From: Acidobacteriaceae bacterium
Lineage (GTDB): Bacteria > Acidobacteriota > Terriglobia > Terriglobales > Acidobacteriaceae
NCBI GenBank assembly: GCA_036267395.1
Contig: DATAWD010000051.1
Location: forward strand, 872 to 64,871
DNA length: 64,000 nt
Direction: 5' to 3'
Under the pieces are notes generated by a model, which saw nothing but the letters and a program-made list of their open reading frames with translations, was not told where the DNA came from and searched no databases. Position numbers and translations under genes: made by a program. Below are positions 5,514 to 43,798 of the stretch, piece after piece; within the stretch, counting starts at the first letter, position 1, and each line of letters starts with the position of its first letter.

Positions 5514-5523
5514 CTTGTTCTCC

Positions 5524-6096: not shown

Positions 6097-6365
6097 GGAT
6101 GGTCGTTCCTTTCAGGATGGGGGTTCACCTCCGTCCGAATCGATCCGCACGGGGGAGCTTCAAACGCAGGGTCTTGAATTTTCCTCCACCAGGCGGCAGA
6201 AGAAACGATAGCAGCATCACCCCAATGTTCTCTACATCGAAATAACTTAGACGGACACCGTTCGGAGCGATCTCCACCTTATCGCACCCGACGCCTGTCA
6301 CGTTCACTGCGTCGCCACCCGATTCAGAATCCGCCACGACCGGAAGCATCATCGCAAAGACGGCT

Positions 6366-6590
6366 TTATTCTTCGTGGAGCAGCGCCAGCGGATCGAGCG
6401 ACAGCGCCCGCCGTGCCGGGATCCATGTCGCGACCAGCCCCAGCAGAGCCATCGCCAACACCACGCCGGTCAGCACCAGCGGGTCACGCGGCGTAGCTCC
6501 GTAGACAATCGACGACAGCACCCGGCTGGCCAGGAAAGGCCCCTGCCGCATCAGCCGGAAGAGTCCCGGATACAGCGCCCGCGGCTCCAT
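6366..6590 (-). pseudogene. C-terminal remnant of an FtsX/MacB-type (ADOP-like) permease
   Basis: The 74-aa ORF ..IVYGATPRDPLVLTGVVLAMALLGLVATWIPARRALSLDPLALLHEE parallels the C-terminus of the intact ADOP permease in this window (..[46 protein letters not shown]). Only 54 nt separate it from the upstream gene, so there is no room for the other roughly 750 aa. Confidence 0.6.
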
Positions 6591-6644
6591 CGGCGGCGCC
6601 TGCTGCGAAATCTGTCAAGGGGAGAAAACCAGCGCCCAGCGACC

Positions 6645-26298: not shown

Positions 26299-26299
26299 C

Positions 26300-28165: not shown

Positions 28166-28185
28166 GGGGAACGACAATGCCCATC

Positions 28186-29934
28186 CTACGGTGTTTTCGT
28201 TGTCAGCGTCTCCGCTTTTTGCCGCTCGCCTGCAGCTTCGGTCATGCGCCCCTGCTGCGCCAGCGCTGCCGCCAGTTGTCGGTGTGCCTCGGCATACTCC
28301 GGATCGCTCCCGATCGCATCCCGATAATCCGCGATCGCATCCGCTATCTGCCCCTTGCTCAGCAGCACATTGCCCGCATTCGTGGAAAAGACCGCACGCT
28401 GACGGTTCACCGCCACCCGCGTCAGCGTCGCCGCCTGCTTCCGCTCTGCTATGGCTTCAGCCGTCTTCCCCTGTTCCTGGAGAACGCCGGCCAGCGTGAT
28501 ATGCGGACCCGGCTGCTGCGGAAGCAGCTCAATTGCCTTCCGCAAGGCTTCCGCTGCTTCGTCGTATTTGCCCTCTTGCCGATAAATGCTGCCCAGCGTC
28601 GACCACCCATCGCCGTTCTCCGGGCGAACTGCCAGGGCTGCGCGCAGGTTCTTCACCGCCTCGTCGAACCGCCCCGCCTGCATGTACAGGATGCCCAGAG
28701 TGTACGGCGCGTCCGGCGAATCCGGCGCGATCCTGATCGTTGTCTCCAGCTCGCGAATCGCATCCGGCAAATCGTCCTTGAGCTTGTAGGCCAGGCCGAG
28801 GTCGTAGTGCAGCAGCGAGTTCTCCGACGCAATCTTCAGCCCCGCCTGCAGCTGCACAATCGCGTCGTCGACGTCGCTTTCCTGTAGATAGGCAGCTCCC
28901 AGATCCAGATACACCGACGAATTCTGCGGATCCAGCCCCATCGCTCGCTGATACAGCGGAATCGCTTCTTTCGCCTTCCCTGTCTGTACCAGCGCCAGAC
29001 CCAGATTAATCAGCGGCTCCGCCTCCGTAGGACGAGCCGCCGCCACCTTCTGAAACAGGGGCAGTGCATCCCCCGACCGTCCCACCCGCTGCAGCCCCAA
29101 AGCCAGTTGGTACTCCGCGTTAGTGTCCCCGGGATTGAGCGCCATCGCCTGTTGATAATGCGGGATGGCATCCCCATCGTCCCCGCTTGCCGTCAGAACA
29201 TTGCCCCATTCGTACTGCACCGCCGCATTGCGGGGATCCAGCTCCGCTGCCCGGCTCATCTCCGCTGCAGCGCGCACCGGCTGCTGCTCATGGCTCAGCA
29301 CCACTCCGAGATGCATATGCGCCGACACCAGATGGGGATCGATTTGCAGAGCGGCACTGAAAGCAGCGTCCGCCGCTCCCCACTCCTCCTTCTGCGCCTC
29401 TAGTGAGCCGAGCTGATCCAGCAGCAGCGCATTGCCCGGATCCGCCGCTGCCGCGCGGTGCATCACGTCGATTGCCGCATCGGTTTGTGATGTTGCCGCC
29501 AGATCGCGGGCCCACAAGGCCAGCATCTCTGCATCCAGCGGAGAATCGTGATCCATCCGTTCCAGCAAAGCCGCGCCCTGCTGTGCCGATCCCGCCTGGC
29601 TGTACGCTCGGGCCAGGTCCTCCTCGACTGCGCGATCGTCAGGCTTCAGCCGCAGGGCCGTCTCCAGTTCCGCGATCGCGCCTTCAAAATCTCGCTGCGC
29701 ATACAGCACCACCCCCAGCGCCGCATGACCCTCTTCAATATCGGGCGCCAGCTTCACCGCTTCGCTGAATTGCGCTCGCGCCGTCTTCAGGTCTCCCTGA
29801 GCGTAAGCCGCGCTTCCCGCGCGAAACGCCGCACTGGCCTCTTCGATTGGCTTTTTCTGGGCCGCGCACACCGCGCATCCGGCGAGCAGCCAGACGCTTA
29901 CCGCCATACGCCATCGATCTGAAGTCAGACCCAT
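28186..29934 (-). CDS. Exported tetratricopeptide-repeat protein (possible lipoprotein)
   Basis: About 580 aa. N-terminal MAVSVWLLAGCAVCAAQ. More than 12 consecutive 34-aa TPR units (..AIPLYQRAMGLDPQNSSVYLDLGAAYL..). Confidence 0.85.
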   Translation of the reverse strand: MGLTSDRWRMAVSVWLLAGCAVCAAQKKPIEEASAAFRAGSAAYAQGDLKTARAQFSEAVKLAPDIEEGHAALGVVLYAQRDFEGAIAELETALRLKPDDRAVEEDLARAYSQAGSAQQGAALLERMDHDSPLDAEMLALWARDLAATSQTDAAIDVMHRAAAADPGNALLLDQLGSLEAQKEEWGAADAAFSAALQIDPHLVSAHMHLGVVLSHEQQPVRAAAEMSRAAELDPRNAAVQYEWGNVLTASGDDGDAIPHYQQAMALNPGDTNAEYQLALGLQRVGRSGDALPLFQKVAAARPTEAEPLINLGLALVQTGKAKEAIPLYQRAMGLDPQNSSVYLDLGAAYLQESDVDDAIVQLQAGLKIASENSLLHYDLGLAYKLKDDLPDAIRELETTIRIAPDSPDAPYTLGILYMQAGRFDEAVKNLRAALAVRPENGDGWSTLGSIYRQEGKYDEAAEALRKAIELLPQQPGPHITLAGVLQEQGKTAEAIAERKQAATLTRVAVNRQRAVFSTNAGNVLLSKGQIADAIADYRDAIGSDPEYAEAHRQLAAALAQQGRMTEAAGERQKAETLTTKTP

Positions 29935-29948
29935 CACCCGCAGTTCCG

Positions 29949-30974
29949 CTAATGCTGCGAGGAGGCCGCTCCGGTCGCCCCCTGCATTTTCTCGACGATT
30001 TGAAATTCCCGCTGAGCCTCGTCTTTCCGTCCGCTCACCGCAAACGCCCGCCCCAGCAGCATATGGGTCATCGGATTCGATGGATCCATTGCCTCAGCAT
30101 GCTTCAGATACAGTGCCGCCATCACGGGATCGTGCTGCTCCAGCATCGTCTTGCCCAGCAGGATATACGGCCCGCTGGCATCCGGCTCCAGCAGCACCGC
30201 GCGATCCAGCGCCTGCTGTGCTCGATCCAGCTGTCCCTGGCGCAAATACGCGTCGCCCATCCGATTGTAGGTCTCGCCATCCAGCGGATTCACCTTTTGC
30301 TCCTGTTCCAGTTCCGCGATCGCTCCCGGCACGTCGCCCTTCGCCAATGCGATCTCCCCCAGCAGCCGATGCGCGAGCGGAAGACGCGGATCCAGAGTCA
30401 GCGCTCGCTGCGCCGCCGTCGTCGCCTGTGCCGTCAGTTCCTGACGGAACAGCATGCGCCCGCTGAACAGCCAGGCGGCCGCCGAATCCGGCGCAAAGCC
30501 ATATTGCGCCGCGAACGCGTGCCGCGCATCGTCGTACCGGCCCGTCGCAATGTAGCACAGCGCCAGCACGTAATTCGGATCCGCATTCGCGATCGGCGCC
30601 GACGAATGCGCCTTCTCCAGAATCGGAATCGCCTTCTCCGGCAGATTCATCCGAAACAGTACAATCCCCCGCATCTGCATCGATTGCAGATCCGAAGGAT
30701 CCTGCTCCACCGCGCGGGTGAAGTCGCCTTCCGCCTCGGCCATGTGGTTCTGCTGGTAATCCACGATGCCCCGCAGCCGCTCCACCCCCGCCGCTTCGGG
30801 ATGCTCCGCCGCCAGCGCATCCAGCTCGCGCAGCGCATCGTCCAGTTTTCCCTGGGCCACCAGGTCCCGGGCGCTGGCCACGCTCGCGCTGCCGCTTGTC
30901 GGAGGATTTTGGGCCGGAACCCCCGCGGTCAGCACCGCTAAGGCAACGACTGAGAGCCAGGCACACCAACGCAT
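29949..30974 (-). CDS. Exported tetratricopeptide-repeat protein
   Basis: 341 aa. Signal peptide MRWCAWLSVVALAVLTAGVPAQ, with TPR units throughout. Confidence 0.85.
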   Translation of the reverse strand: MRWCAWLSVVALAVLTAGVPAQNPPTSGSASVASARDLVAQGKLDDALRELDALAAEHPEAAGVERLRGIVDYQQNHMAEAEGDFTRAVEQDPSDLQSMQMRGIVLFRMNLPEKAIPILEKAHSSAPIANADPNYVLALCYIATGRYDDARHAFAAQYGFAPDSAAAWLFSGRMLFRQELTAQATTAAQRALTLDPRLPLAHRLLGEIALAKGDVPGAIAELEQEQKVNPLDGETYNRMGDAYLRQGQLDRAQQALDRAVLLEPDASGPYILLGKTMLEQHDPVMAALYLKHAEAMDPSNPMTHMLLGRAFAVSGRKDEAQREFQIVEKMQGATGAASSQH

Positions 30975-31048
30975 GATGCCGGAAGTCTACTCCACAAAAG
31001 CAAACGGAGGAGAGCTGGGCTCTCCTCCGTGTTGGAGGTTGAGACAGG

Positions 31049-34000
31049 TTAGAACTGCATGCGTAGCGAGAACTGCAGCTGCCGCGGGTTCGTGTAAATC
31101 CCCAGCGCCGGTTCTCCCGTGATGTTCCCGTCTGACCCGGTATTCGTCGACGACGGATTGCCCGCATTGATGTGGTTGAATGCGTTGAAAGCGTCGAGTC
31201 GGAACTGCGCCGTCAGACTTTCACGTATCGGGAAATTCTTCGCCAGCGAAAGATCCGTGTTGAAGTATCCCGGCCCCATGAAGCTGTTCCTGCCGATGTT
31301 TCCGATCGTATCCAGCGGCGCTTCCGTATACGAGGTGGTGTCGGCAGCTTTGAAAAACGTCCGGCTGTGCGTCTGCGCATTAAACCCGGACAGGCTCGTG
31401 TGCAGCGCGCTCCGCTTGCCCTCCGGATAACACGGTGCGCTTCCCGGTACCGAGTCGCCGCAACCCGATCCCAGACCCAGCGACCACGGCAGTCCGTTGG
31501 ACCAGTTCAGCACCGGACTCAGCTGCCATCCGCCGATGATCTCGTCCTCCCACTTCGTCGCATTGCCGGCAATCATCTGGTTCTTGCCAAAGGGCAGCTG
31601 ATACAGCCCAAAGATCACCAGTTGCTGCGTGCGCAGAGAATCGTCCGGCCCGTAGCCGGCCTGTTTGCTCCACGTCGCATATCCGCCGTTGTAGTTGAAC
31701 GAACGCTGCCACGCATACTGGACGTTGCCTGACAACCCATGGGTGTACTGCTTCGCCAGCGTCACATCCAGCGCGTCGAAGCTGGTGTTCTGGTCGTCCC
31801 CGTCAAACTGGATCCCCTGCGTCCACCCGCACATGCCGGGCGTAATCATCGCCTCGTTCTGAGCCATGAGTGCCGCTTCATAGCCTGGATCCGTACAGGC
31901 TGTCGTCCCACCGCCATAGAACCGCGACAGGAAGTTATTCGTCGAAGTTCCTCCGTCCGCCGCAATCACGCCACCCGCAACGCTTCCGTCGTAGTGCAGC
32001 GGAGCTCCGTTCACGCTGTATTGCTGCGGCAGAAAGATACCTGCCTCGTTCGGGTTCGTGCTGTTCCCGTCGCCGTTGCTCAGGGTATGCGTTCCCTTGT
32101 TCCCGATGTAAGCCGCCGTCAGCGACAGCGTCGGCGTCAGCGCCCGCTGCACGCTCAGGTTCCAGGCGTCCAGCGTTGGCAGCCGCAGGCTGTTCGGCCG
32201 TGCCTTCGGACCCACCGCGTATCCGGGCGTCGCCAGCAGACCATCCGATGGCACCGTCGGGAACTGATAGGCCGGCGGTCCCGCCGCCAGCGAAAACGCG
32301 CTCCCTGTCGTGGTCGCGGCCGTCAGTGACTGGTTGGCCAGCACCGGCAGGTTCTGTGTCACCGTATGTCCGAAGATCGATCCGAAGACTCCCATATCGA
32401 AGCTTCGCCCGTAGCCCGCGCGCACCACCGTTTTCGAGTTCAGCGACCAGGCAATGCCCATTCGCGGGTTCCACCCGTTGGTGTTCATGTCCCATCCCAT
32501 GTTGGTCGGGATGCTGCCGTATCCGGCGACGCGCAGATACCCATCCGTGCTGTATCCGTTGACGCCGTCGTTCATCTCCATCAGCGATCCGTTGCCTTTG
32601 CCGTTCACTGACTCCGGGAAATACATCTCGTACCGAAGGCCGTAGTTCACCGTCAGAGAAGGTGTCGGGTGCCACGTGTCCTGCGCGTAGAAGAAGTCCC
32701 TCTTCTGGAACTCCTTCGCATTCGTGGAAACGCTCACGTACCGGTTAAAGCTGGTTACATCGCCCAGCAGGAAACTGGCCATGCCCAGGCCGCCTGTGGC
32801 TCCGTTGTCTGAGGTTGGCCCTGGAGCAAAGTTCAGCAGGCCGGTCCGGTCGTTGTCGCTGGGCACCCGCAGGTTGCGCGCGTACCGCACGTCCACTCCG
32901 AACTTGAAGGCGTGGTTCCCTTCGATCCGGGTCCAGTTGTTCACGATCTGGAACTGATCCTCGCGCTCCGTCAGCGGGCAGTTGCAGCGCGTGATGTTCA
33001 GTCCCGAACCATACTCCGCTCCGCCGCCCGTCGGGTTGCTTACACCCTCGTTGCCGGATCGGTCCGCGTCACCCACGTTGAACCCAGGCGCGCCGCTCGT
33101 GAAGCTGTCTCCCAGGTTCATCCCCGGAATGCCCAGCTGGTTGGCGAACTGCGTGCTCTGGTCGTACTTCTGGTCGCCGATGTTGTACCGGTAGTAGCCG
33201 ATCCGCCAGTCCATCAGCAGCTTGGGATTGATCGCGATGTCCATCCCGGCCGCCAGACTGTCGTTCGCGCCCTGTGAGACGCCACCGTATCCGCCGATGC
33301 CGAAGCCCGGGCCGCCCGCCGCTCCAAAGATTGTCGAGCCCGACAGCGTGTCCGTGAACCGGCTGAACCGCGTGAAGGCGTGCATGCCGCTTGTAATCTG
33401 GTCATCCACGCGTACGTCCCACTGGTTATTGTTAAACAGCCCTGTGCCGCTGGCCGAATAGTTGTTCTTCAGGCCCGCGAGGTTGTTCGCGCCCACCGTG
33501 CCCCCGCTGTTCGGAGCATAAGGAGCCAGCAGCTTCAGCAGGGCCAGCGCCTGCGGCGAAAGCTGCGCCGTCGGAATCACGTTGCCCGGGTACGCCACGG
33601 ATCCGCCCGGCGTCTGCTGATAGATAAGCGGCGTATTGGGGTTGCCGGTGATCCCCAGCGCGTATTCGCTGAAGTCGCAGCCCGCAATCCCGTTGCTTGC
33701 TGTCGCCGTGCCCAGACAGGTCGAAACCAGATGCGCCGTCGGAACCGACGCCGTCTCCGCTGTGCCGACCTTCTGCCGCACGCCCTGGTAGTCGCCGAAG
33801 AAGAACAGCTTGTCCTTCAGAATCGGCCCCCCGATCGATCCGCCAAACTGGTTCTTCAGCCCTGGGGGAAAGATCGTGCCCGGGAACTGCGTGTAGGGAT
33901 CGCGTCCCAGATTCGCGCTGCTCTCCCGATAATCAAAAACGCTGCCGTGGAAGTTGTTCGATCCCGACTTGGTCTGCACCGAGATGAACGACGAAACCGC

Positions 34001-34708
34001 CTTCCCAAACTCTGCGTCGTAGTTCTGCGTGGTGATCTTCGCCTCGGAAATCGCGTCCAGCGGCGGGTTGATCACGATAATTCCAAGAATCGGATCCTGG
34101 TTGTCCGTGCCGTCCAGCTGATACGCCACACCGCCGAATGCCTGCCCGTCCACCTGGATCTGCTTGCTGGCCTGCGGGTTCTCATCCGCCGCATGGCTCC
34201 AGCCCAGCGACTGCGCGCCCGGCAGCAGCAGCTGCATGTTCGTGAAGTTCCGATCCGGAATCGGCATGTTCTCGATCTGCTTGGTCGTGAACTCGACCGC
34301 CACGTCGGCCCGGTCCGTCTTCAGCTCCGGAATGTCGTTCGCGCTCACCGTGATGGTCGTCGACGCGTTGCCCGTCTTCAGGGACGCGTCGATCTTCGGC
34401 GAACTGTCGGCCGCCACCGGCACGCCATCCGCTTCAAACGACTGGAAGCCGCTGGCTTCCACTTTCACGTTGTAAGTGTCGGGAATCAGGTGCTCGGCTG
34501 TGTATTCGCCGGACGCGTTCGACTGAACTTTAACTGAGGTGTTCTTGGAGACGTCGGTGATCGTAACCGTCGCGTTCGGAACTACGGCGCCGCTTGGGTC
34601 CGTTACCGTTCCGTAGATAGAACCATAGACCGCCTGTGCATGAGACAGGCTGGAAAAACACAAAGCAATGGCCAAGCCAAAGGCTGGCAGCAGCCTCGTC
34701 AATCGCAT
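31049..34708 (-). CDS. TonB-dependent outer-membrane receptor with N-terminal carboxypeptidase-regulatory-like domain
   Basis: 1219 aa with a signal peptide. Then AVYGSIYGTVTDPSGAVVPNATVTITD (CarboxypepD_reg), a plug region and a long beta-barrel ending ..QLQFSLRMQF. GGGAGGA lies 5 nt upstream of the ATG. Confidence 0.92.
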   Translation of the reverse strand: MRLTRLLPAFGLAIALCFSSLSHAQAVYGSIYGTVTDPSGAVVPNATVTITDVSKNTSVKVQSNASGEYTAEHLIPDTYNVKVEASGFQSFEADGVPVAADSSPKIDASLKTGNASTTITVSANDIPELKTDRADVAVEFTTKQIENMPIPDRNFTNMQLLLPGAQSLGWSHAADENPQASKQIQVDGQAFGGVAYQLDGTDNQDPILGIIVINPPLDAISEAKITTQNYDAEFGKAVSSFISVQTKSGSNNFHGSVFDYRESSANLGRDPYTQFPGTIFPPGLKNQFGGSIGGPILKDKLFFFGDYQGVRQKVGTAETASVPTAHLVSTCLGTATASNGIAGCDFSEYALGITGNPNTPLIYQQTPGGSVAYPGNVIPTAQLSPQALALLKLLAPYAPNSGGTVGANNLAGLKNNYSASGTGLFNNNQWDVRVDDQITSGMHAFTRFSRFTDTLSGSTIFGAAGGPGFGIGGYGGVSQGANDSLAAGMDIAINPKLLMDWRIGYYRYNIGDQKYDQSTQFANQLGIPGMNLGDSFTSGAPGFNVGDADRSGNEGVSNPTGGGAEYGSGLNITRCNCPLTEREDQFQIVNNWTRIEGNHAFKFGVDVRYARNLRVPSDNDRTGLLNFAPGPTSDNGATGGLGMASFLLGDVTSFNRYVSVSTNAKEFQKRDFFYAQDTWHPTPSLTVNYGLRYEMYFPESVNGKGNGSLMEMNDGVNGYSTDGYLRVAGYGSIPTNMGWDMNTNGWNPRMGIAWSLNSKTVVRAGYGRSFDMGVFGSIFGHTVTQNLPVLANQSLTAATTTGSAFSLAAGPPAYQFPTVPSDGLLATPGYAVGPKARPNSLRLPTLDAWNLSVQRALTPTLSLTAAYIGNKGTHTLSNGDGNSTNPNEAGIFLPQQYSVNGAPLHYDGSVAGGVIAADGGTSTNNFLSRFYGGGTTACTDPGYEAALMAQNEAMITPGMCGWTQGIQFDGDDQNTSFDALDVTLAKQYTHGLSGNVQYAWQRSFNYNGGYATWSKQAGYGPDDSLRTQQLVIFGLYQLPFGKNQMIAGNATKWEDEIIGGWQLSPVLNWSNGLPWSLGLGSGCGDSVPGSAPCYPEGKRSALHTSLSGFNAQTHSRTFFKAADTTSYTEAPLDTIGNIGRNSFMGPGYFNTDLSLAKNFPIRESLTAQFRLDAFNAFNHINAGNPSSTNTGSDGNITGEPALGIYTNPRQLQFSLRMQF

Positions 34709-35076
34709 AACCGTCCTCCCGAAAAAAGTTACAGCTCTCTTAGTGCGCTTCCTGTACCGCGGTCAGGAGCGTCATCGGTTTACATTCCACAGAGAATTAA
34801 GCCCGAGATAGGGAGATGACCGACTGCTTGCCCGTATCGACAGCCCGGGACACATCTCGTAAAGAATCCAGATCGAGCCCATCTACTGCGGTGAAGGTGA
34901 CTTGCAGAGCCGCTGAGGAAGCTGGGAAGGCCCTGCGCATCGGTACGTCAGTACTTCTGGTTCTCCGGACTGTAGGCAACCGAGTGGTCGTTTGTCAAGG
35001 TGAGAACGAATCCCCGGCTCCCGCAAATTCTTTCGATCGACACTTAACGAGGTTTATCCTCTACTAAATCGATTTC

Positions 35077-35697
35077 ATGCCCCTGTTGCACTTTATGCTA
35101 CCCATGGTAAGGTTCAAGTCGATGTTTTGTCGTCTTCTCGCTACCGCGTTCCTCGCCCTTCCCGTCCTTGCCTTCGCCGCCCAGCCCTTCGGCACCGACC
35201 TCCACGGCCAACCCCTCGATCGCCTCGCGCCACCCGGCACCAAAGCCGTCGTTCTCTTCTTCGCCGCATCGGACTGCCCCATCTCCAATCGCTACATTCC
35301 TGAAATCGAGCGCCTGCAGCGCGCCTACGTCACCGACGGCGTCCGCTTCCTCTGGGTCTATCCCAATCCCGCTGATACCGCGCCTGTCGTGCGCGCGCAC
35401 GACCAGCAATTCAGCATCTCCGCTGATGCCGTCCTCGATGTGAACCAGCGCCTGACCGCCCTGGCTCATGCCACCATCACGCCCGAAGTTGCCATCCTGG
35501 TGCCTGCTGCCTCCGGCTGGCGCGAGGTCTATCGCGGCCGTATCGACGACCGTTACATCGCCCTCGGGCAGGAACGTCCCCACGCCATGAAGCACGATCT
35601 TGAGCTCGCCATTCGCGCCGTCCTTGCAGACCAGCGTGTGCCCGGGCCCGGAGGCCCCACCGTCGGTTGCTCCATCGTGCCCCGCAACGAGCAATGA
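35077..35697 (+). CDS. Exported thioredoxin-fold (redoxin/AhpC-TSA-like) protein with single-Cys CPIS motif
   Basis: 206 aa from ATG 35077 (alternative ATG 35122 gives MFCRLLATAFLALPVLAFAAQ). Has KAVVLFFAASDCPISNRYIPEIERL, and then TPEVAILVP..GWREVYRGRIDD follows the thioredoxin-fold pattern. Confidence 0.75.
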   Translation: MPLLHFMLPMVRFKSMFCRLLATAFLALPVLAFAAQPFGTDLHGQPLDRLAPPGTKAVVLFFAASDCPISNRYIPEIERLQRAYVTDGVRFLWVYPNPADTAPVVRAHDQQFSISADAVLDVNQRLTALAHATITPEVAILVPAASGWREVYRGRIDDRYIALGQERPHAMKHDLELAIRAVLADQRVPGPGGPTVGCSIVPRNEQ

Positions 35698-37904
35698 AAA
35701 ATCTGCGACTCGTTCCGCTGGCGCTCGCCGCCTGCGCCCTGCTTTGCCTGCCAACGCTGCATCGCACCACCCATGCGGCCGAAGCTCCCGTTACCTGGAG
35801 CCGGCAGATCGCCCCCATCGTCTACCAGCACTGCTCTACCTGCCATCACCCCGGCGGCGGCGGTCCTTTCAACCTCCTCACCTATCAGGACGCGCGCCGT
35901 CGCGGACCGCAGATGGTCCAGGTCACCCAGTCCCGCTTCATGCCCCCCTGGCTGCCCCAGCCCGGCTACGGCGACTTCGTCGACGACCGCCGCATCAGCG
36001 ACGACGACATCGCCCTCATCCGCCGTTGGGTCGCTACCGGCATGCCCCAGGGCAACCCATCTCAAGCACCCCCCGCTCCGCACTACAACGCAGACTGGCA
36101 AATCGGCAAGCCCGATCTCGTTCTCACCGTCCCCCGCTCCTTTACCCTGAAGGCTTCGGGCACCGACGTCTTCCACAACTTCATCCTCCCCAATCCCCTC
36201 ACCCAAACCCACTACATTCGCGCCATGCAGATTCTCCCCAGCGTCCCTCAGGTCGTGCATCACGCGAATGTCCTCATCGACCGCACCGCTTCCTGGCGGC
36301 ACGCCCATCCCTCTGACTGGCAAAATGGTTTCGGCGGCATGGAGCTGGAAGTCGATGCCGGCAATATCTTCGATCCCGACAGCCACTTCCTCTTCTGGAA
36401 GCCCGACACGCCTGTCCTCTACGAACCACCCGGCATGCCCTGGCGCCTCGATCCCGGCAACGACCTCATCCTCAACATGCACCTCAAGCCCAGTGGCAAG
36501 CCCGAGATCATCAGCGCCCGCATCGGCCTCTACTTCGCCGATACGCCCGCTAAGCAACACCCCATGCTGCTCCAGCTCGATGCCGACGAGCAGCTCAACA
36601 TTCCCGCCGGCGATCGCAGCTTCGTTGTCCAGGATTCGCTCCGCCTGCCCCTCGATGTCGAAGCCCTCGGCATCTATCCCCACGCCCACTATCTCGGTCA
36701 CATCCTCGAAGGCTGGGCCGACTTGCCTAACGGTCACAAAAAGTGGCTCATCCGCATTCCCAACTGGGACATCGATCGCCAATCCGTTTTCCGCTACCGC
36801 ACCCCGGTCTTTCTTCCCCGCGGATCGGTGCTGCACATGCGCTACGTCTACGACAACTCCGAAGACAACGTCCATAATCCAAATGACCCGCCCATCCGCG
36901 TCCGCGCCGGCAACCGCTCCGTCGACGAGATGGGCCACCTCTGGATTCAGGTCCTGCCCCTTCACGTGCCCCCCGGCAGTCCCGACCCGCGCCTCATCCT
37001 CGAAGAGGCCTGGATGGAACACCGTCTGACCAAAGTCCCAGGCGACGACATCGCGCTCTACAACCTGGCTTCCGCCCAGGCCGGACTCGGCCACTACACC
37101 GAAGCTGCTGCCGACTATCGCAAAGTCCTTAGCACCCATCCCGGCGACCCACGCACGCTCAACAGCCTTGGCGCGGCTCTCGAAAATGCAGGCGATTCTC
37201 AGGCCGCCGCCGGCGCCTTTACTCAGGCCATCGACTCCGGTGCTCCCAGCTGTGATGCACGCTTCAACCTCGCCCAAATGGATCTCAAGCACAGCGACTT
37301 CCAACCGGCCGAGCTGCAATTCCGCCAGATGATCCAGCATTGCCCCGACGACCCCGATGTCCACAGCGGCCTCGGCGTCGCCCTTACCGAACAGGGCAAT
37401 GCCACCGCCGCCCAGCCCGAGTTCCAGCGCGCCCTCCGGCTCGATCCGACGAACTTCACCGCTCTTACGCAGCTCGGCCAGGCAGACATCGAATCGGGCC
37501 AGCCGCAGCAGGCCATTCCACTCCTGCAAACCGCCGTTCAGCAGCAACCTGACGATCTCCAGACGCGCGAACGCCTGGCCATGGCCCTTTCTCAGTCCGG
37601 CCGCGGCGACGACGCTCTCCGGCAGTTGCGCGAAGCCGCCCTCCGCTCGCCCGCCGATCCTGAAGTGCACGCGCTGCTCGCACAACTCCTCAACGCCAGT
37701 GGACAGCTCCCCCAGGCCATTGCCGAGCAGCGCCAGGCGCTTCACTTGCAGCCCGACGACGCCGACGGCTGGAATAATCTCGGTGTCCTCGAAGCCCGCT
37801 CTGGCCTCAATGCCGCCGCCCGCGCGGATTTTCTCCGCGCTTTGCAGCTCAATCCCAGCCACGCTCAGGCCCGAGCCAACCTCAGTCGCCTCCCCCCGCG
37901 GTGA
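35694..37904 (+). CDS. Exported fusion: c-type haem domain + PHM/DBH-like copper type II monooxygenase-like domain + TPR repeats
   Basis: ATG 35694 overlaps the upstream stop (ATGA). Signal peptide present. CSTCH at nt 35832-35846, VVHHANV (HH at 36258-36263), NMHLKP, YPHAHYLG (HxH at 36681-36689) and SVDEMGHLW (36924-36932). The last roughly 290 aa are TPR. Confidence 0.75.
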   Translation: MKNLRLVPLALAACALLCLPTLHRTTHAAEAPVTWSRQIAPIVYQHCSTCHHPGGGGPFNLLTYQDARRRGPQMVQVTQSRFMPPWLPQPGYGDFVDDRRISDDDIALIRRWVATGMPQGNPSQAPPAPHYNADWQIGKPDLVLTVPRSFTLKASGTDVFHNFILPNPLTQTHYIRAMQILPSVPQVVHHANVLIDRTASWRHAHPSDWQNGFGGMELEVDAGNIFDPDSHFLFWKPDTPVLYEPPGMPWRLDPGNDLILNMHLKPSGKPEIISARIGLYFADTPAKQHPMLLQLDADEQLNIPAGDRSFVVQDSLRLPLDVEALGIYPHAHYLGHILEGWADLPNGHKKWLIRIPNWDIDRQSVFRYRTPVFLPRGSVLHMRYVYDNSEDNVHNPNDPPIRVRAGNRSVDEMGHLWIQVLPLHVPPGSPDPRLILEEAWMEHRLTKVPGDDIALYNLASAQAGLGHYTEAAADYRKVLSTHPGDPRTLNSLGAALENAGDSQAAAGAFTQAIDSGAPSCDARFNLAQMDLKHSDFQPAELQFRQMIQHCPDDPDVHSGLGVALTEQGNATAAQPEFQRALRLDPTNFTALTQLGQADIESGQPQQAIPLLQTAVQQQPDDLQTRERLAMALSQSGRGDDALRQLREAALRSPADPEVHALLAQLLNASGQLPQAIAEQRQALHLQPDDADGWNNLGVLEARSGLNAAARADFLRALQLNPSHAQARANLSRLPPR

Positions 37905-38049
37905 GCCGCGCTGACGTGGTAGCATTTCACCCTGCCTTGCCCCTTCATCGCACCGCTTACGGCGCCGTGATTCAACACTCTCGCCAGCCGCGTTCCCTGC
38001 CATCGGTTCGCACTGGATCCCAACTTTGTTCCTTCGGAGAGAGACAACG

Positions 38050-40584
38050 ATGAGAATGCGCGTGCCCCTGGCCGCCCTGCTGTTCATGGCTCTGCAATCG
38101 ATCCTTTTCGCTCAGGTGCCCAAGCCCGCCCCACTCTCGACCGTTGCCGCCTTTCCCCTGGCGCAGCCGGCCGGTCTTGAAATCGCCCGCGAGATCGATC
38201 CTACCCGTCCCTTTTCCGTCGTCGGTCCGCACGGCGCCCTTCTCGGCCAGCAGGATGGCTCGTTCGAAGCCTGGATCTTTCCCTGGAAGATCTTCAGCCA
38301 TCTCCACATCACCGCCGAGATGGAGAACTACCCGGTCCCCATCGACGTCAACCAGTACGCCGCGTGGATCGAGGTCCACCCCAACGTCACCATCCTTACC
38401 TACTCCCACGCTAACTTCACCATCCGCCAGATCATGTTCGCCCCCCGCCAGACGCCCGATGGCGCGGGCGTTGTCGTGCTCTTTCAGATCGAAGCCATTC
38501 GCCCCATGACCCTCACCTTCAGCTTCACTCCGGAGATGTATCAGATGTGGCCCGCGGCCTCTGACCCCGAGCCCGATTCAGAATGGCTGCCCACCTGGCC
38601 CTTTCCTGCCGCCACCCATCCCTCCTCCGGTTTCTACATCCTCAACGAGAGCTTCCCCGACCACGCTGCCGCGCTCGCCATGCCCACCGCCGAACCCGGC
38701 ATTCTGCCGCCCTATCAGGAACGCCCGCAGCCCTGGCCGCTCCAGTTCGTCATCCACTTCGATCCCCACCGCGATTCCAGCACCTTCTTCCCCCTCCTGA
38801 TGACCGTGGCCAACACCCGCGCCACCGCGGAGTGGTACGCTCTGGGGCGCAGTCTCGCCACCCTCGATGCCGCCGTCCCTTCTCTGTACTCCGCTAACGC
38901 CGGCTACTTTCACGACCTGCTCTCCACCCACGCCAGCATCGAAACCCCCGACACCCATCTCAATGCCGCCTTCTCCTGGGCCATAGCTGCCATCGATCAG
39001 CTCCGTGTCGAAACACCCAGCCACAACGGCGAAGCCTTCACCGCCGGCGTCGTCTCCTCCGCTGACTCTGTGCGCCCCGGCTTTGGCTGGTTCTTCGGTC
39101 GCGACGCGCTCTGGACGCTCTACGCCGTCGACAGCTATGGCGACTTCCCGGCCGCCCGCCAGGAATTTGATTTCCTCCTCCGCCACCAACGTGCCGACGG
39201 CAAAATCATGCACGAATACTCGCAGACCGCCAATGTCGTCGACTGGCAGGCGCTGCCCTATGAATACGCCGCTGCTGATGCCACGCCTCTCCTGCTCATG
39301 GCCATGAACGACTACCTCAGGACCAGCGGCGATCTCGATTTCGTCCGCTCTCGCTGGGATAACCTCGCTCGCGCCTGGAATTTCGAAACCGACCACGTCT
39401 CTCCTGACGGCTTCTACAACAACACCCAGGGCACGGGATGGGTCGAGAACTGGTCGCCGCGCCTGCCTTCTCAGGAAATCTATCTCGCCGCCCTCGACGA
39501 AGAGGCCAGCCTCGCCTTCGCCGATCTCGCCCGCGCCACCGGTCACGCCGATCTCGCCGATGCCGCTGTCGCACGCGGCAAGCGCCTCGCCCAGATCCTC
39601 GAGCAGGAATACTTCCTGCCCTCCCAGGACTTCTACGCCTTCAGCCACAATCCCACCGGTACCACCGACGACACACCTACCATCTATCCCGCCGTCGCCT
39701 GGTGGGATGGCACGTTCGCGCTCCAGCATCCCTCCGCCATGCTCCAGCGCTGGGCCTCCGACGAATTCTCTACCGACTGGGGCACCCGCGATGTGGGCGG
39801 CCACGTCAGTTTCTTCGATCCCATCAGCTACCACGAGGGCTCGGTCTGGCCGCTCTTCACCGGCTGGGTTTCGCTGGCGGAATACCGCGCCGGCCATCCC
39901 CTCGCCGGCTACGCCCACCTCATGCAGAACGCCGATCTTACCTGGTCCCAGGATCTCGGCGACGTCACTGAATTGCTCTCCGGCCAGTACTTCCAGGTCC
40001 TCGGGCGCAGCACCGCTCACCAGCTCTGGTCCTCCGCCATGGTCATCTCGCCGATCCTGCGCGGCCTCTTCGGCCTCGAGTGGAATGCCCCCGCGAACAC
40101 TCTCACCATCACACCGCGGCTTCCCGCGGACTGGAATACCGCTACCCTCCGCCACATTCCTCTCGGCATCGCCACCGTGGATCTCACCTTTACCCGTCAG
40201 GGCTCAGAGTGGCTCGTCACCAGCAGCAGCCCGAACGTGCATCTCGCCTCGCACAGCTCCCAGGCTCGCATCACCGGCAACACCCTCCATATCCCCGTGC
40301 CGGCCGTCGAGGTCGCTGTTCCTGTGAGTCTCCCCGCCCCGGGTTCCCAAACCGAGGAGATGAAGGTTCTCGACGAGCAGAGCACTCCTCGCTCCCTCAC
40401 GCTCACCCTCTCCGCCCCGGGCTCGTCCACGCAGACCTTCTTGCTGAGGGAAAACGCGGCCCGCCTGCATCTCGTTGCCGACCACGCCGACATCGCTCCT
40501 GCACACGACGGCCTGCATCCCGTCACGGTCCAATTCCCGTCGGGGACCGGATACGTGACCCAAACCGTTACCTTTTCCTGGTAA
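38050..40584 (+). CDS. Exported (alpha/alpha)6 glycoside hydrolase, glycogen-debranching-enzyme-like (GDE_C-type)
   Basis: ATG 38050 is preceded by GGAGAG. Signal peptide MRMRVPLAALLFMALQSILFAQ. Has GFGWFFGRDALWTLYA, LLRHQRADGKIMHEY, GTGWVENW and HEGSVWPLFTGW. The family assignment is approximate. Confidence 0.7.
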   Translation: MRMRVPLAALLFMALQSILFAQVPKPAPLSTVAAFPLAQPAGLEIAREIDPTRPFSVVGPHGALLGQQDGSFEAWIFPWKIFSHLHITAEMENYPVPIDVNQYAAWIEVHPNVTILTYSHANFTIRQIMFAPRQTPDGAGVVVLFQIEAIRPMTLTFSFTPEMYQMWPAASDPEPDSEWLPTWPFPAATHPSSGFYILNESFPDHAAALAMPTAEPGILPPYQERPQPWPLQFVIHFDPHRDSSTFFPLLMTVANTRATAEWYALGRSLATLDAAVPSLYSANAGYFHDLLSTHASIETPDTHLNAAFSWAIAAIDQLRVETPSHNGEAFTAGVVSSADSVRPGFGWFFGRDALWTLYAVDSYGDFPAARQEFDFLLRHQRADGKIMHEYSQTANVVDWQALPYEYAAADATPLLLMAMNDYLRTSGDLDFVRSRWDNLARAWNFETDHVSPDGFYNNTQGTGWVENWSPRLPSQEIYLAALDEEASLAFADLARATGHADLADAAVARGKRLAQILEQEYFLPSQDFYAFSHNPTGTTDDTPTIYPAVAWWDGTFALQHPSAMLQRWASDEFSTDWGTRDVGGHVSFFDPISYHEGSVWPLFTGWVSLAEYRAGHPLAGYAHLMQNADLTWSQDLGDVTELLSGQYFQVLGRSTAHQLWSSAMVISPILRGLFGLEWNAPANTLTITPRLPADWNTATLRHIPLGIATVDLTFTRQGSEWLVTSSSPNVHLASHSSQARITGNTLHIPVPAVEVAVPVSLPAPGSQTEEMKVLDEQSTPRSLTLTLSAPGSSTQTFLLRENAARLHLVADHADIAPAHDGLHPVTVQFPSGTGYVTQTVTFSW

Positions 40585-40621: not shown

Positions 40622-43600
40622 TTACGCAGCCTCACCCGCCGCCGAATCGCGGGATATGTTGGCCCGTTCCCGCATCGTCCGCGCTACGGCCACCCCTGCC
40701 ACCCCCAGCGCCCCCAGCGTCAGCAGAGCGCTGATGCGCGCCCGCCGCCGGCTGCTCTTCCGTTGCTCCGCCAGAGCTGCCTCCGGCCGCCCCTGCACCG
40801 GCAATTCCGCCTCGGCGCCGTCCTTCTGCTGCGCCATCCGGATCACCTCGGCCAGATGCAGCGCCTGTCGGTCCGTATCCTGCGCAATCTGCTCCCGGCA
40901 GCTGAACCCGTCGGCAATAATGACAGCATCGTCCTCCGCCTCCCGTACTGCCGGCAGCAGCGCCCGCTCGCCAATTTTTAGCGAGATGTCGTACTTATCC
41001 GCCTCAAAGCCAAACGATCCCGCCATCCCGCAGCATCCGGAACTCAACAGTTTGTAATCCAGTCCGATCTTATCCAGCACCTTCTGCTCGTCGTCGAACC
41101 GGATTACCGATTTGTGATGGCAGTGCCCCTGCACCACCGCCCGCCGCGCCAGCCGCGGAATTTTGAAATCCGGAGCCTTCTTCTCCAGCAATTCGCTCAG
41201 CACCAGCGTCTGCTCCCGCAGCTTTTTGGCCAGCGGATCATTCGGAAACAAATTTCTCAGCTCGTCGCGGAACACCGTCGCACAGCTCGGCTCCAGCACT
41301 ACCACCGGCACGCCCGCCTCAATGTCCTTCCGCAGCGCCCGCATGATCTTCCGCAGGTACCCTTTGGCCTGATCGAGGAATCCATAATCGTAAAGCGGCC
41401 GCCCACAGCACAGATGCTGCATCGGCACCTTCACCGCAAAACCCGCGCTCTCCAGCACCTCCGTCGCCGCCTGCGCCGTCTCCGGAAAGAAGAAGTTGTT
41501 GAACGTGTCCGCCCACAGAATCACCTTCCCCCGCTCGCCCCCGCTCTTCTGCTTGCCTCGTTCGTGGAACCACGCCTTGAACGTCTCCGGCGCAAACTCC
41601 GGAATCGTCCTCCCCTGCGGCATCCCCGCTGCTGCCTTGGCCAGCGCGCTTAATCCCGGCGTCTGCGTCACCAGATTCACCAGCCCCGGCCACACCGATG
41701 CCAGTCGCGACCACTGGTCGATCATCCCGAACGCATACGCGTATCGTGGCCGCATCCGCCCTTCCCAGTAATGCGACAGAAACTCTGCCTTATATGTCGC
41801 GACATCCACGTTCACCGGGCAATCGCCCTTGCACCCCTTACACGCCAGGCACAGATCCAGCGCTTCTTTCACATTGTCGTCGTGCCAGCGGTCTTCGATG
41901 ATGCCCCCATGCATCATCTCCCACAGCGTGTGCGCCCGCCCCCGCGTCGTGTGCCGCTCCTCATGCGTCACCATATAGCTGGGGCACATGGTGTCGTTCT
42001 CAGGACGATCGCTGTCCTTGCGCCGGCATTTCCCGATCCCCACGCACCGCAGCGTCGCATGCGCAAAACTGCCCCCGTCATCGGGAAACTGAAAATGCGT
42101 TTCCGGATCCCAGGGATGGTACTCGGCTCCCAGCTTCAGATCCTCATCCATCCGGTTCGGCTCGACGATCTTCCCCGGATTCATCTTCCACTGCGGATCC
42201 CAGATCGTCTTGTACTCGCGAAACGCCTCGATCAGCTCAGGCCCAAACATCTTCACCAGGAACTCGGCCCGCGCCTGCCCGTCGCCGTGCTCCCCGCTCC
42301 AGCTCCCCTCAAATTTCCCGCACAGGTCCGTCGCCTCTTCCATGAACGACCGGTATTTCCGGATTCCCGCCTCGCTCGTTAGATCGAAATCGACCCGGCA
42401 ATGAATACAGCCCTGCCCGAAATGCCCGTAGAGCGCCGGATTGTATTCATATTTCTTGTAGAGCGCGCGCAACTCGCGCAGATACTTCCCGAGATACTGC
42501 GGCGCCACCGCGGAGTCTTCCCACCCGGGCCATGTGTCCGGCTCACCTGGCACAAACGCCGTCGCCCCCAGCCCCGACTCGCGAATCTCCCACATGTGGT
42601 GCATCTCATCCTGATCGGTCAGCAGCTTCATGTACGGCGTGTTTGCCTTTTTCTTCAACATCTCCATCGCCGCATGCGCCGCCGCAATCGCGTCCTGCTT
42701 GCGGTCTGCGCCGAACTCCGCCATCAGCCATCCCTTGCCCTCCGGCAGCAACCCCAGATACTTCGCATGCCGCTCGCCCTTCTTCAGCATGTTCTCCCGC
42801 AGCCGGTCGTCGATGCCTTCCAGCGCCACCGGCTGGAACGCATCGATCTCCATCACGTGATCCGCCGCTTCGTACACGCTGGGATACCCCAGCATCAGGA
42901 TCGCCCGCTCCGCCTTCGCATCGATCAGCCGAACCCTCGCTTCCAGCACCGTCACCAGCGTGCCCTCGCTGCCCACCAGCGCCCGCGCTATATTGAAACG
43001 CCCATCCTTTCCCGGCAGCAGCTCGTTCAGGTTGTACCCCGATACCCTCCGCGGAATCGGCGGATATTTATCCCGTATTTGCCGCGCATACCGATCCCGC
43101 AGCCCCCGCAGTCCGCTGTAAATCTCGCCTTCCCGACCGCCCGCGGCAATCTTTCTCTCCAGATCGCGCTCCGTCATCCAGCCCACGGTCATCCGCGTCC
43201 CGTCGTAGAGCAGAATCTCCATCTCCTCGACGTTGTGTTCCACCTTGCCCGACATTTGCGCATGCGCCCCGCACGAATTGTTGCCGATCATCCCCCCAAA
43301 GCAGCAGTGGTTGTGCGTCGACGGATCCGGCCCCCAGTTCAGCAGATTGCCCGTTACCCGCAACGCCTGGTTCCGCAGTTCATCGCACACCGTCCCCGGC
43401 AACACCCGCGCCCACCGCTCCTGCGCGTTAATCTCCAGCACCCCGTGCAGATATTTCGACCAGTCCATCACCACGGCGGTGTTCACCGTCTGTCCGGCCA
43501 GGCTCGTCCCGCCCGCCCGCGACAGCAGCGGCGCGCCGAACTCCTGGCACAGACGCACCGTTTTAACTACATCGTCCTTCGTCTTCGGAATCACCACCCC

Positions 43601-43798
43601 GATCGGAATCTGCCGATAGTTCGAGGCGTCCACCGCATACAGCGCTTTGGTGCCTGCGTCGAAGCGCACCTCTCCCTCGACCGCCGTCTCCAGCGCGCGG
43701 CGCAATCCCTCCACATCCACGCCGCGTCCCCCGGCACGCGCGCTCATAGGACGAGTCAGTTCTTCCGGCGCAATCAGCGGGGCAGCTTTCGCAGACAT
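40622..43798 (-). CDS. YdiJ-like FAD-binding oxidase fused to Fe-S/CCG (GlcF/GlpC-like) domains, with C-terminal TM segment
   Basis: 1058 aa. Has RAGGTSLAGQ (FAD_binding_4), Cys clusters CVGIGKCRR..MCPSY and CLACKGCKGDCP, CCG motifs CCGRPLYDYG and CCGMAGSFG, and a C-terminal hydrophobic ISALLTLGALGVAGVAVA. Confidence 0.92.
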   Translation of the reverse strand: MSAKAAPLIAPEELTRPMSARAGGRGVDVEGLRRALETAVEGEVRFDAGTKALYAVDASNYRQIPIGVVIPKTKDDVVKTVRLCQEFGAPLLSRAGGTSLAGQTVNTAVVMDWSKYLHGVLEINAQERWARVLPGTVCDELRNQALRVTGNLLNWGPDPSTHNHCCFGGMIGNNSCGAHAQMSGKVEHNVEEMEILLYDGTRMTVGWMTERDLERKIAAGGREGEIYSGLRGLRDRYARQIRDKYPPIPRRVSGYNLNELLPGKDGRFNIARALVGSEGTLVTVLEARVRLIDAKAERAILMLGYPSVYEAADHVMEIDAFQPVALEGIDDRLRENMLKKGERHAKYLGLLPEGKGWLMAEFGADRKQDAIAAAHAAMEMLKKKANTPYMKLLTDQDEMHHMWEIRESGLGATAFVPGEPDTWPGWEDSAVAPQYLGKYLRELRALYKKYEYNPALYGHFGQGCIHCRVDFDLTSEAGIRKYRSFMEEATDLCGKFEGSWSGEHGDGQARAEFLVKMFGPELIEAFREYKTIWDPQWKMNPGKIVEPNRMDEDLKLGAEYHPWDPETHFQFPDDGGSFAHATLRCVGIGKCRRKDSDRPENDTMCPSYMVTHEERHTTRGRAHTLWEMMHGGIIEDRWHDDNVKEALDLCLACKGCKGDCPVNVDVATYKAEFLSHYWEGRMRPRYAYAFGMIDQWSRLASVWPGLVNLVTQTPGLSALAKAAAGMPQGRTIPEFAPETFKAWFHERGKQKSGGERGKVILWADTFNNFFFPETAQAATEVLESAGFAVKVPMQHLCCGRPLYDYGFLDQAKGYLRKIMRALRKDIEAGVPVVVLEPSCATVFRDELRNLFPNDPLAKKLREQTLVLSELLEKKAPDFKIPRLARRAVVQGHCHHKSVIRFDDEQKVLDKIGLDYKLLSSGCCGMAGSFGFEADKYDISLKIGERALLPAVREAEDDAVIIADGFSCREQIAQDTDRQALHLAEVIRMAQQKDGAEAELPVQGRPEAALAEQRKSSRRRARISALLTLGALGVAGVAVARTMRERANISRDSAAGEAA

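Follow-up and report, generated by a model that had tools for sequence, protein, structure and literature searches.

A 64,000-nucleotide stretch of Acidobacteriaceae DNA (contig DATAWD010000051.1, assembly GCA_036267395.1; hereafter, the window) contains two translationally coupled genes on its forward strand, which we call ORF1 and ORF2 (open reading frames 1 and 2). ORF2 combines a signal peptide, a mono-haem cytochrome c-like domain, a two-lobe domain resembling the copper core of peptidylglycine alpha-hydroxylating monooxygenase (PHM) and dopamine beta-hydroxylase (DBH), and a tail of tetratricopeptide repeats (TPRs). ORF1 encodes an exported thioredoxin-fold partner. Judging from sequence comparison and a structural model, ORF2 is probably a non-coupled binuclear copper monooxygenase that works in the periplasm, belongs structurally with PHM and DBH, and has its own electron-entry module. 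Its predicted catalytic fold and ligands place it in an enzyme class already known, so that it is not categorically new. As far as sequence comparison can tell, what sets the system apart is its fused c-type haem, its TPR tail, and its coupled partner with a split cysteine pair, together with the loss of the PHM substrate anchor.

A predicted two-lobe copper core of the PHM/DBH type

An AlphaFold2 model of ORF2 amino acids (aa) 1 to 445, built from 126 sequences, had a mean predicted local distance difference test score (pLDDT) of 92.5 and a predicted template modelling score (pTM) of 0.88, with most of the N-terminal lobe above a pLDDT of 90. When this model was compared with the PDB by Foldseek, every match down to rank 31 was to PHM or human DBH (E = 2.1e-12 to 2e-9, probability of 1.00). 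PHM entries had target-normalised TM scores of 0.52 to 0.61, and the longer DBH chains scored 0.38; the next matches were viral jelly-roll capsids (E > 7e-5). ORF2 shares two beta-sandwich lobes with the rat PAM PHM core (PDB entries 1PHM, 1SDW, and 3MLL; E = 2e-12) and the same catalytic core with human DBH (PDB entry 4ZEL; E = 5.7e-12) and its relatives tyramine beta-monooxygenase (TBM) and MOXD1.

PHM binds its CuH copper through H107, H108, and H172 and its CuM copper through H242, H244, and M314. Upon alignment of the ORF2 family with the rat PHM catalytic core (PHMcc) by hhalign (probability of 90.8%, E = 1.2e-6, 245 columns), all six of these ligands fell in register. At the CuH site, VVHHANV of ORF2 aligned with TVHHMLL of PHM (H107/H108) and LILNMHL with FVLQVHY (H172). 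At the CuM site, YPHAHYLG aligned with RVHTHHLG (H242/H244) and SVDEMGHLW with SSDEMCNLY (M314). Residue Q170 of PHM is also retained (family consensus LQLH). The two proteins therefore have the local motifs HH, [LV]Q.H, H.H.LG, and S.DEM..L in common, at an overall identity of only about 15%. The first lobe (aa ∼135 to 286) holds the HH+H triad and the second lobe (aa ∼287 to 430) holds HxH+M, the same distribution as in PHM.

An earlier note on this DNA, made from its letters alone, had proposed a PHM/DBH-type core from four motifs: VVHHANV (H189/H190), NMHLKP (H263), YPHAHYLG (H330/H332), and SVDEMGHLW (M413). All four occur at these positions. The spacings it gave, 141 aa from HH to HxH and 81 aa from HxH to Met, are also correct and compare with 135 and 70 aa in rat PHM, the sequence of which was checked against PDB chain 4e4z_A. 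The fold matches and the six in-register ligands now bear out the assignment itself.

Conservation was assessed in an alignment of the 150 best representatives, which are 40 to 68% identical to ORF2. The predicted CuH ligands H189 (144/145), H190 (145/145), and H263 (150/151) and the predicted CuM ligands H330 (149/150), H332 (149/150), and M413 (145/146) are nearly invariant, as is the adjoining E412 (145/147). In contrast, none of the 18 remaining histidines of this region is conserved; H52, H161, H173, H203, H205, H231, H289, H336, H348, H381, H394, H415, and H424 are freely replaced. Six fixed ligands against a background of variable histidines is the pattern expected of metal ligands, and the conservation that the earlier note had asked for is therefore present. 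Further invariant motifs are specific to the family, namely W.LG.PD at the start of the domain, WDFNWQD.Y, and YDNS..N..NP..PP..V..G.

The family is large. With its N-terminal 444 residues as the query, ORF2 retrieves over 7,392 clusters at the 90% identity level. At 50% identity, the central domain alone retrieves 6,298 cluster representatives with E ≤ 1e-3, of which 904 have E ≤ 1e-30. ORF2 is 100% identical to an Acidobacteriaceae protein from a metagenome-assembled genome (MAG) that NCBI names "tetratricopeptide repeat protein." Its relatives bear this name or "TadD / mono-diheme cytochrome c family protein," and copper appears in none of the names. At the family level, PF03712 (Cu2_monoox_C) matched 19 of 20 trimmed relatives (best E = 2.3e-5), the sole failure being the window protein. 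Five relatives scored individually gave 15.6 to 24.1 bits against a gathering score of 23, with one of the five passing. Because the relatives score around or under this cutoff, the family has gone unannotated.

The reading that the databases convey is that ORF2 is a TPR scaffold with a cytochrome c-like N terminus, in which the middle region is a non-catalytic beta-sandwich. Public names that mention only TPR, TadD, or mono-diheme cytochrome c are in keeping with it, as is the outcome of Pfam and NCBIfam searches, which placed no domain in aa 130 to 445 even at E ≤ 10. These searches covered all of ORF2 and, separately, aa 1 to 444, 1 to 139, and 140 to 444, and they returned TPR families and a weak Cytochrome_CBB3 match only. 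However, a structural scaffold would not readily explain why exactly the six PHM-equivalent ligand positions are near-invariant across 150 divergent relatives, or why the top fold matches are PHM and DBH only. We regard this reading as highly improbable.

A tethered cytochrome c-like domain and an exchangeable C terminus

ORF2 contains exactly one CXXCH motif, the CSTCH that the earlier note had located at nucleotides 35832 to 35846, which corresponds to aa 47 to 51. Residues C47, C50, and H51 are conserved in 126/126 sequences of the 150-representative alignment, and Met83 of the invariant MPPW motif, a candidate axial ligand, in 130/131. Pfam detected a weak Cytochrome_CBB3 match at aa 39 to 87 of ORF2, and weak Haem_bd and PccH matches occur in the same N-terminal domains of relatives. 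When the family profile was searched against the PDB, only c-type cytochromes were retrieved (the hydrazine synthase alpha haem domain, PccH, OmcF, c6, and CcoP), none of them significantly (best E = 0.025). The best of these matches, the C-terminal haem domain of hydrazine synthase alpha (PDB entry 5C2V) and PccH (PDB entry 4RLR), lie below significance, and no Pfam cytochrome family exceeds its threshold; both proteins share with ORF2 the pattern F.RD[IV].PI...C..CH ... MPP ... W[IV]..GA. We take the planctomycete PSCyt1-type domain to be of the same CXXCH...MPP cytochrome type. On motif grounds, ORF2 very likely binds haem c. Packing of the cytochrome domain against the copper core is suggested by the high pTM of the model, which spans both domains.

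The TPR tail of about 290 aa that the earlier note described was recovered by Pfam over aa 454 to 733 (TPR_2, E = 1.6e-34; TPR_17, E = 1.6e-29; TPR_16, E = 1.6e-27). A TPR-like tail is present in 130/150 representatives. One relative (P0251; 1,064 aa) is a tandem duplication of the cytochrome c and PHM-like unit, with CXXCH motifs at positions 40 and 593; after each copy, the TPR is replaced by D-x-[DN]-x-D-G-K-L-S..E motifs that look EF-hand-like by eye. Given P0251 and the count of TPR tails, the C-terminal module appears exchangeable, while the conserved core consists of the cytochrome c and PHM-like domains.

Both proteins begin with what look, by eye, like Sec signal peptides, as the earlier note had also read them. 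The true start of ORF1 is probably M16 (nucleotide 35122), since most ORF1 homologues are 191 aa long. In ORF2, the signal region includes a lipobox-like string, LAAC, and close homologues keep the sequence A-[AS]-E-A-P-V-T-W after an AXA-like cleavage site. In ∼40% of distant relatives, a clear lipobox replaces the AXA-type site.

A coupled thioredoxin-fold partner with two separated cysteines

ORF1 scored 26.6 to 26.9 bits for AhpC-TSA (cutoff of 26) and 25.4 bits for Redoxin (cutoff of 26.6), and 34 of 35 ORF1 relatives matched both families. The ORF1 family profile retrieved 2ywi (E = 7e-19), 2cvb and 2ywo (E = 4e-17), and 3u5r (E = 3e-15) from the PDB, all uncharacterised, with ResA-type oxidoreductases reaching only ∼1e-5. 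These proteins come from Geobacillus kaustophilus (2YWI) and Thermus thermophilus (2CVB and 2YWO, TTHA0593), and together with 3U5R they presumably belong to the PRX_like1 group of CDD. They share C-P-x-x and [IV]GC motifs with ORF1. In contrast to 2YWI, 2CVB, and 3U5R, ORF1 has a signal peptide and a stop codon overlapping the start of the cytochrome c-PHM-like gene.

The earlier note had described ORF1 as a single-Cys (CPIS) thioredoxin-fold protein. The fold stands; the count of cysteines does not, as two are invariant. Using the motif register F....C..[CS]....P, we assigned C67 to the position of the nucleophilic first Cys of the thioredoxin CXXC motif and Ser70 to the second. Among ORF1 relatives, C67 is conserved in 51/51, P68 in 50/51, and S, A, or T at position 70 in 51/51, giving the motif D-C-P-[IV]-[SAT]-N-R-Y; in alignment A3, the D, C, P, and R of DCPISNRY are invariant. 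The other conserved cysteine, C198 (50/51), lies in a C-terminal VGCSI motif and is a candidate resolving cysteine or second metal ligand. Both cysteines align with cysteines of 2ywi and 2cvb, where the corresponding motif is IGC[ST]IK. The C-terminal cysteine of 2ywi was treated as a putative resolving cysteine in a modelling study (PMC3091736). A further cysteine of ORF1, C18, falls within the signal peptide, and H173 (206-aa numbering; "H158" in alignment A3) is nearly invariant. The canonical CXXC of TlpA/ResA/DsbE-type proteins is absent from ORF1, which has C-P-I-S in its place. By inspection, the PxxxT/SxxC motif of peroxiredoxins is absent as well, since LFFAASD-C lacks Pro at -7 and Thr or Ser at -3. 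Because C67 and C198 are both invariant and neither of these motifs is found, ORF1 looks like a split-pair thiol redox protein that is neither a canonical peroxiredoxin nor a CXXC oxidoreductase.

To follow the linkage of the two genes, we surveyed the 80 best genomic loci of ORF2 relatives. Almost all belong to Acidobacteriota (Acidobacteriaceae, Bryobacteraceae, Blastocatellia, and Vicinamibacteria), with one from a Verrucomicrobiia MAG; one ORF2-family representative comes from Phycisphaerae (Planctomycetota). The partner is present in 52/80 loci: directly upstream on the same strand in 50, downstream on the opposite strand in one (L050, from the cultured Acidobacteriaceae bacterium KBS 96), and as an apparent fusion in one (L015). 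The four-nucleotide stop/start overlap, which the earlier note had correctly placed at 35694 to 35697 as ATGA in the window, recurs in 44 of the 50 loci with an upstream partner (ATGA in 35, GTGA in 7, and TTGA in 2). That the coupling persists among loci at partner identities as low as 33 to 40% speaks for co-translation of the two proteins and for their assembly into a stoichiometric complex. The linkage expected from the earlier note therefore holds in most loci, although the partner is missing in 25 of the 77 testable loci, that is, those with full flanks (3 more have incomplete upstream flanks). The partner is thus not obligatory for the ORF2 family.

Apparent fusions of partner and enzyme (the L015 ORF at 5230 to 7968 and P0340) were rejected as read-through or frameshift artefacts, because out-of-frame Arg/Pro-rich sequence replaces the C terminus of the partner and is followed by an intact signal peptide. 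In seven loci from Bryobacteraceae and other acidobacterial MAGs (L024, L027, L036, L037, L039, L045, and L057), the thioredoxin-like partner is missing, and a protein of ∼1,330 aa, TamB/AsmA-like by eye, precedes the PHM-like gene, in most cases together with a conserved protein of ∼100 aa. We judged these two neighbours to be unrelated local synteny and not parts of the system.

A non-catalytic role for ORF1 would be compatible with a monooxygenase function of ORF2. ORF1 might be a Sco-like copper chaperone or maturation factor that delivers or reduces copper for ORF2 through C67, C198, and a conserved histidine. Its thioredoxin fold, the two invariant cysteines with the nearly invariant H173, and the tight translational coupling would all suit such a role, and the profile search gave weak matches to the thioredoxin-like copper/metal resistance proteins 6nen and 6mhh (E = 0.002 to 0.004). 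However, ORF1 lacks the CxxxC motif of Sco proteins, its nearest relatives of solved structure (2ywi, 2cvb, and 3u5r) are uncharacterised, 2ywi does not have the histidine, and no partner lies nearby in 25 of the 77 testable loci. We thus view the chaperone role as possible but doubtful.

Proposed mechanism and competing explanations

We infer the occupancy of the metal and haem sites, the direction of electron flow, the O2 chemistry, the nature of the substrate, and the role of the partner from the features above, and the resulting scheme is as follows. A covalent c-type haem (C47/C50/H51, with Met83 as the axial ligand) would be reduced, one electron at a time, by the periplasmic cytochrome pool; in loci that also encode a heptahaem cytochrome (see below), the latter would be a candidate donor. 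The haem would pass electrons to the CuH-type site (H189, H190, and H263), and the CuM-type site (H330, H332, and M413) would bind O2 and hydroxylate a substrate C-H bond in the cleft between the lobes. Where PHM and DBH draw on two ascorbates, each turnover of ORF2 would use two electrons delivered by the haem. The TPR array would recruit a macromolecular partner or substrate, and ORF1, with C67 in its CXXS motif and C198, would most likely form a 1:1 complex with ORF2 as a thiol-based redox or maturation partner. The earlier note had likewise put forward the haem as reductant, a monooxygenase activity, and a protein or peptide partner or substrate.

In its fullest form, the proposal is that this is the first ascorbate-independent system of the PHM/DBH type, in which a fused haem c wires a periplasmic copper monooxygenase to the respiratory cytochrome pool. 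The monooxygenase would act within a conserved envelope module that includes the thioredoxin-like protein with its split cysteine pair; in many lineages, this module would also take in a dedicated outer-membrane barrel, a heptahaem cytochrome, and an FG-GAP/UnbV protein. The module would hydroxylate some protein, peptide, or polymer, and it would occur widely among soil Acidobacteriota and also in Planctomycetota. We advance this combined proposal tentatively, with somewhat less than even confidence.

Several results weigh against the assignment of ORF2 as a haem-fed PHM/DBH-type monooxygenase. In ORF2, neither Cu2_monooxygen nor Cu2_monoox_C was matched by Pfam at E ≤ 10, and PF01082 (Cu2_monooxygen, the N-terminal lobe) matched neither ORF2 nor the 20 relatives. 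A phmmer search of the PDB with aa 1 to 444 retrieved nothing, and the copper-domain family profile retrieved nothing significant from the same database. The convergence of the ligands into two separate metal sites is read from the in-register alignment with PHM and not from the geometry of the model. The residue R240 that anchors the substrate carboxylate in PHM corresponds to Y328 (consensus YPHAH), N316 corresponds to H415 at a position that varies among D, E, and H, and Y318 corresponds to W417. In the cytochrome domain, Cytochrome_CBB3 matched the N-terminal domains of 9/9 relatives (E = 1.5e-5 to 0.013), all below the gathering score of 27 bits, and Foldseek with the isolated domain (model pLDDT of 85) gave no significant match (best, NorC; E = 2.7). 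To these points may be added the loci without a partner and the literature, in which we found no experimental data for any member of the ORF2 family.

The profile search that the earlier note had proposed as a check thus gave a divided answer, with no copper-monooxygenase match for ORF2 and a Cu2_monoox_C match for 19 of its 20 relatives. Read literally, the result for ORF2 speaks against the assignment; we gave precedence to the family-level and structural evidence. For the c-type haem domain put forward in the same note, the CXXCH and MPPW motifs and the consistent sub-threshold profile matches lend support, and the fold comparison does not. Because R240 is replaced by Tyr, a glycine-extended peptide is not expected to be the substrate of ORF2.

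The same architecture could also serve a different reaction. In an oxidase or reductase, haem c and two coppers would deliver electrons to O2, H2O2, or a nitrogen oxide; alternatively, they would oxidise a substrate, and the haem would relay the electrons onward to the respiratory chain. Periplasmic redox enzymes typically carry a tethered cytochrome c, the CuM site of PHM binds nitrite, azide, and CO, and PHM structures with these ligands at copper were among the Foldseek matches (3mib, 3mll, and 3mlj). The recurrence of the heptahaem cytochrome nearby and the missing PHM substrate anchor point the same way. However, the strict conservation of the Met ligand and the Q170 equivalent fits O2 activation of the PHM type, and a long TPR tail is hard to explain in a small-molecule reductase. 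To our knowledge, every characterised member of the fold class with His3 and His2Met sites (PHM, DBH, and TBM) is a monooxygenase. We therefore consider an oxidase or reductase unlikely and favour the monooxygenase.

Relation to known systems

ORF2 differs from PHM in being bacterial, predicted periplasmic, and fused to cytochrome c and TPR domains, with no obvious supply of ascorbate. Its copper domain is devoid of Cys, so that the cysteines and disulfides of PHM are absent. DBH resembles ORF2 in having an extra N-terminal domain before the copper core, but the flanking modules differ: an N-terminal DOMON domain and a C-terminal dimerisation domain in DBH, a CXXCH cytochrome c domain and TPRs in ORF2.

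Delivery of electrons from haem to copper has precedents. Cytochrome b561 supplies PHM and DBH by way of ascorbate, and the cytochrome domain of cellobiose dehydrogenase or CYBDOM proteins supply LPMOs. In each case, as proposed for ORF2, a haem protein feeds single electrons to the mononuclear copper of an O2-activating extracytoplasmic enzyme. These systems use a b-type haem, located on a separate protein or acting through ascorbate, whereas ORF2 would carry a c-type haem on the same chain as the PHM-type core. Literature searches retrieved no publication describing a bacterial protein of the cytochrome c-PHM-like kind, its partner, or the gene cluster, which agrees with the statement in the earlier note that no characterised bacterial system of this architecture was known.

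PHM and DBH are textbook animal enzymes for which two matters are still under debate: the long-range electron transfer from CuH to CuM and the reliance on ascorbate and cytochrome b561. If the proposed function is correct, a bacterial PHM-like enzyme with a tethered haem c would be a self-contained recombinant model in which electron entry could be triggered and followed optically, and PHM/DBH copper chemistry would be in use on a large scale by soil bacteria. With thousands of clusters, nearly all labelled as TPR proteins, the family would constitute a major predicted group of periplasmic oxygenases that is invisible to annotation. The conserved partner would provide the first functional context for thioredoxin-like proteins of the 2YWI/2CVB type. 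Finally, the recurrent neighbours described below may be signs of an envelope pathway not yet recognised in the Acidobacteriota, a soil phylum that is dominant yet poorly understood.

Coordinates and wider neighbourhood

The features of the two genes and of the operon divergent from them are listed in Table 1.

Table 1. Positions in the window of the ORF1/ORF2 features and of the divergent operon
Feature	Position	Strand	Basis or remark
ORF1, longest reading	35077-35697	+	206 aa
ORF1 from M16, exported thioredoxin-fold, peroxiredoxin-like partner	35122-35697	+	191 aa
ORF1 predicted Sec signal peptide	35122-35178	+	MFCRLLATAFLALPVLAFA, then cleavage before AQP; by inspection
DCPISNRY motif of ORF1 (CXXS / CxxxxR), C67 and Ser70	35272-35295	+	Alignment
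VGCSI motif of ORF1, C198	35662-35676	+	C198 conserved in 50/51
ATGA stop/start overlap, ORF1/ORF2 translational coupling	35694-35697	+	Sequence; kept in relatives
ORF2, signal peptide, mono-haem cytochrome c domain, PHM/DBH-like two-lobe copper domain, TPR tail	35694-37904	+	736 aa from ATG
ORF2 predicted signal peptide	35694-35777	+	...TLHRTTHA, cleaved before AEAP; by inspection
Cytochrome c-like domain, aa 29-128 (CSTCH, 35832-35846; MPPW with candidate axial Met83, 35940-35951)	35778-36077	+	Motifs; sub-threshold profile matches
PHM-like N-terminal beta-sandwich lobe, predicted CuH-type site (H189/H190, 36258-36263; H263, 36480-36482)	36096-36551	+	hhalign, conservation, model
PHM-like C-terminal beta-sandwich lobe, predicted CuM-type site (H330/H332, 36681-36689; M413, 36930-36932)	36552-36983	+	hhalign, conservation, Cu2_monoox_C matches in relatives
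C-terminal TPR array, about 290 aa (aa ∼446-736)	37029-37901	+	Pfam, aa 454-733
Five-gene operon divergent from ORF1/ORF2	24667-34708	-	Pfam
CarboxypepD_reg and beta-barrel outer-membrane protein (OMP)	31049-34708	-	Pfam
TPR protein, 341 aa	29949-30974	-	Pfam
TPR protein	28186-29937	-	Pfam
FG-GAP/ASPIC-UnbV protein	26300-28177	-	Pfam
Heptahaem cytochrome c with TPR tail, seven CXXCH	24667-26298	-	Pfam, motif count

In 40/80 loci, spread over several acidobacterial classes, the PHM-like gene has at least one orthologue of the divergent operon no more than 6 kb away. An orthologue of the OMP occurs in about 19 to 22 loci, at 36 to 77% identity over most of its length (unrelated paralogues, ∼24%); of the 341-aa TPR protein in 26; of the FG-GAP/UnbV protein in 14; and of the heptahaem cytochrome in 8 to 13. 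In three loci (L011, L040, and L051), the OMP, the heptahaem cytochrome, the partner, and the cytochrome c-PHM-TPR protein follow one another in this order on one strand. The operon may thus be part of the same envelope system. We treat the association as suggestive only, because shared phylogeny makes the loci non-independent and Acidobacteriota have many OMPs of this kind; a functional link would be an extrapolation from it.

No paralogue of ORF1 or ORF2 was found elsewhere in the window, and a promoter and terminator scan of 34600 to 38200 was uninformative. Long antisense ORFs that span the locus, such as one of 844 aa at 35553 to 38087 on the reverse strand, were dismissed as artefacts of high GC content (63% in this DNA), having no homologue support. 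Antisense ORFs of this kind also mislead longest-ORF gene calling in related loci (e.g., L030, L056, and L063).

Downstream of ORF2 by 122 nucleotides, on the forward strand, an 852-aa exported protein is encoded at 38026 to 40584, with weak matches to GDE_C and to MGH1-like glycoside hydrolases (E = 2e-5). It is probably outside the unit, since it does not occur at that position in the most closely related locus (L001). On the reverse strand, positions 40622 to 43798 encode a 1,058-aa protein in which an FAD-linked oxidase (FAD_binding_4 and FAD-oxidase_C) is fused to a 4Fe-4S dicluster domain and a CCG cysteine-rich domain, an arrangement that resembles a GlcD/GlpC-like or D-lactate-dehydrogenase-type enzyme.

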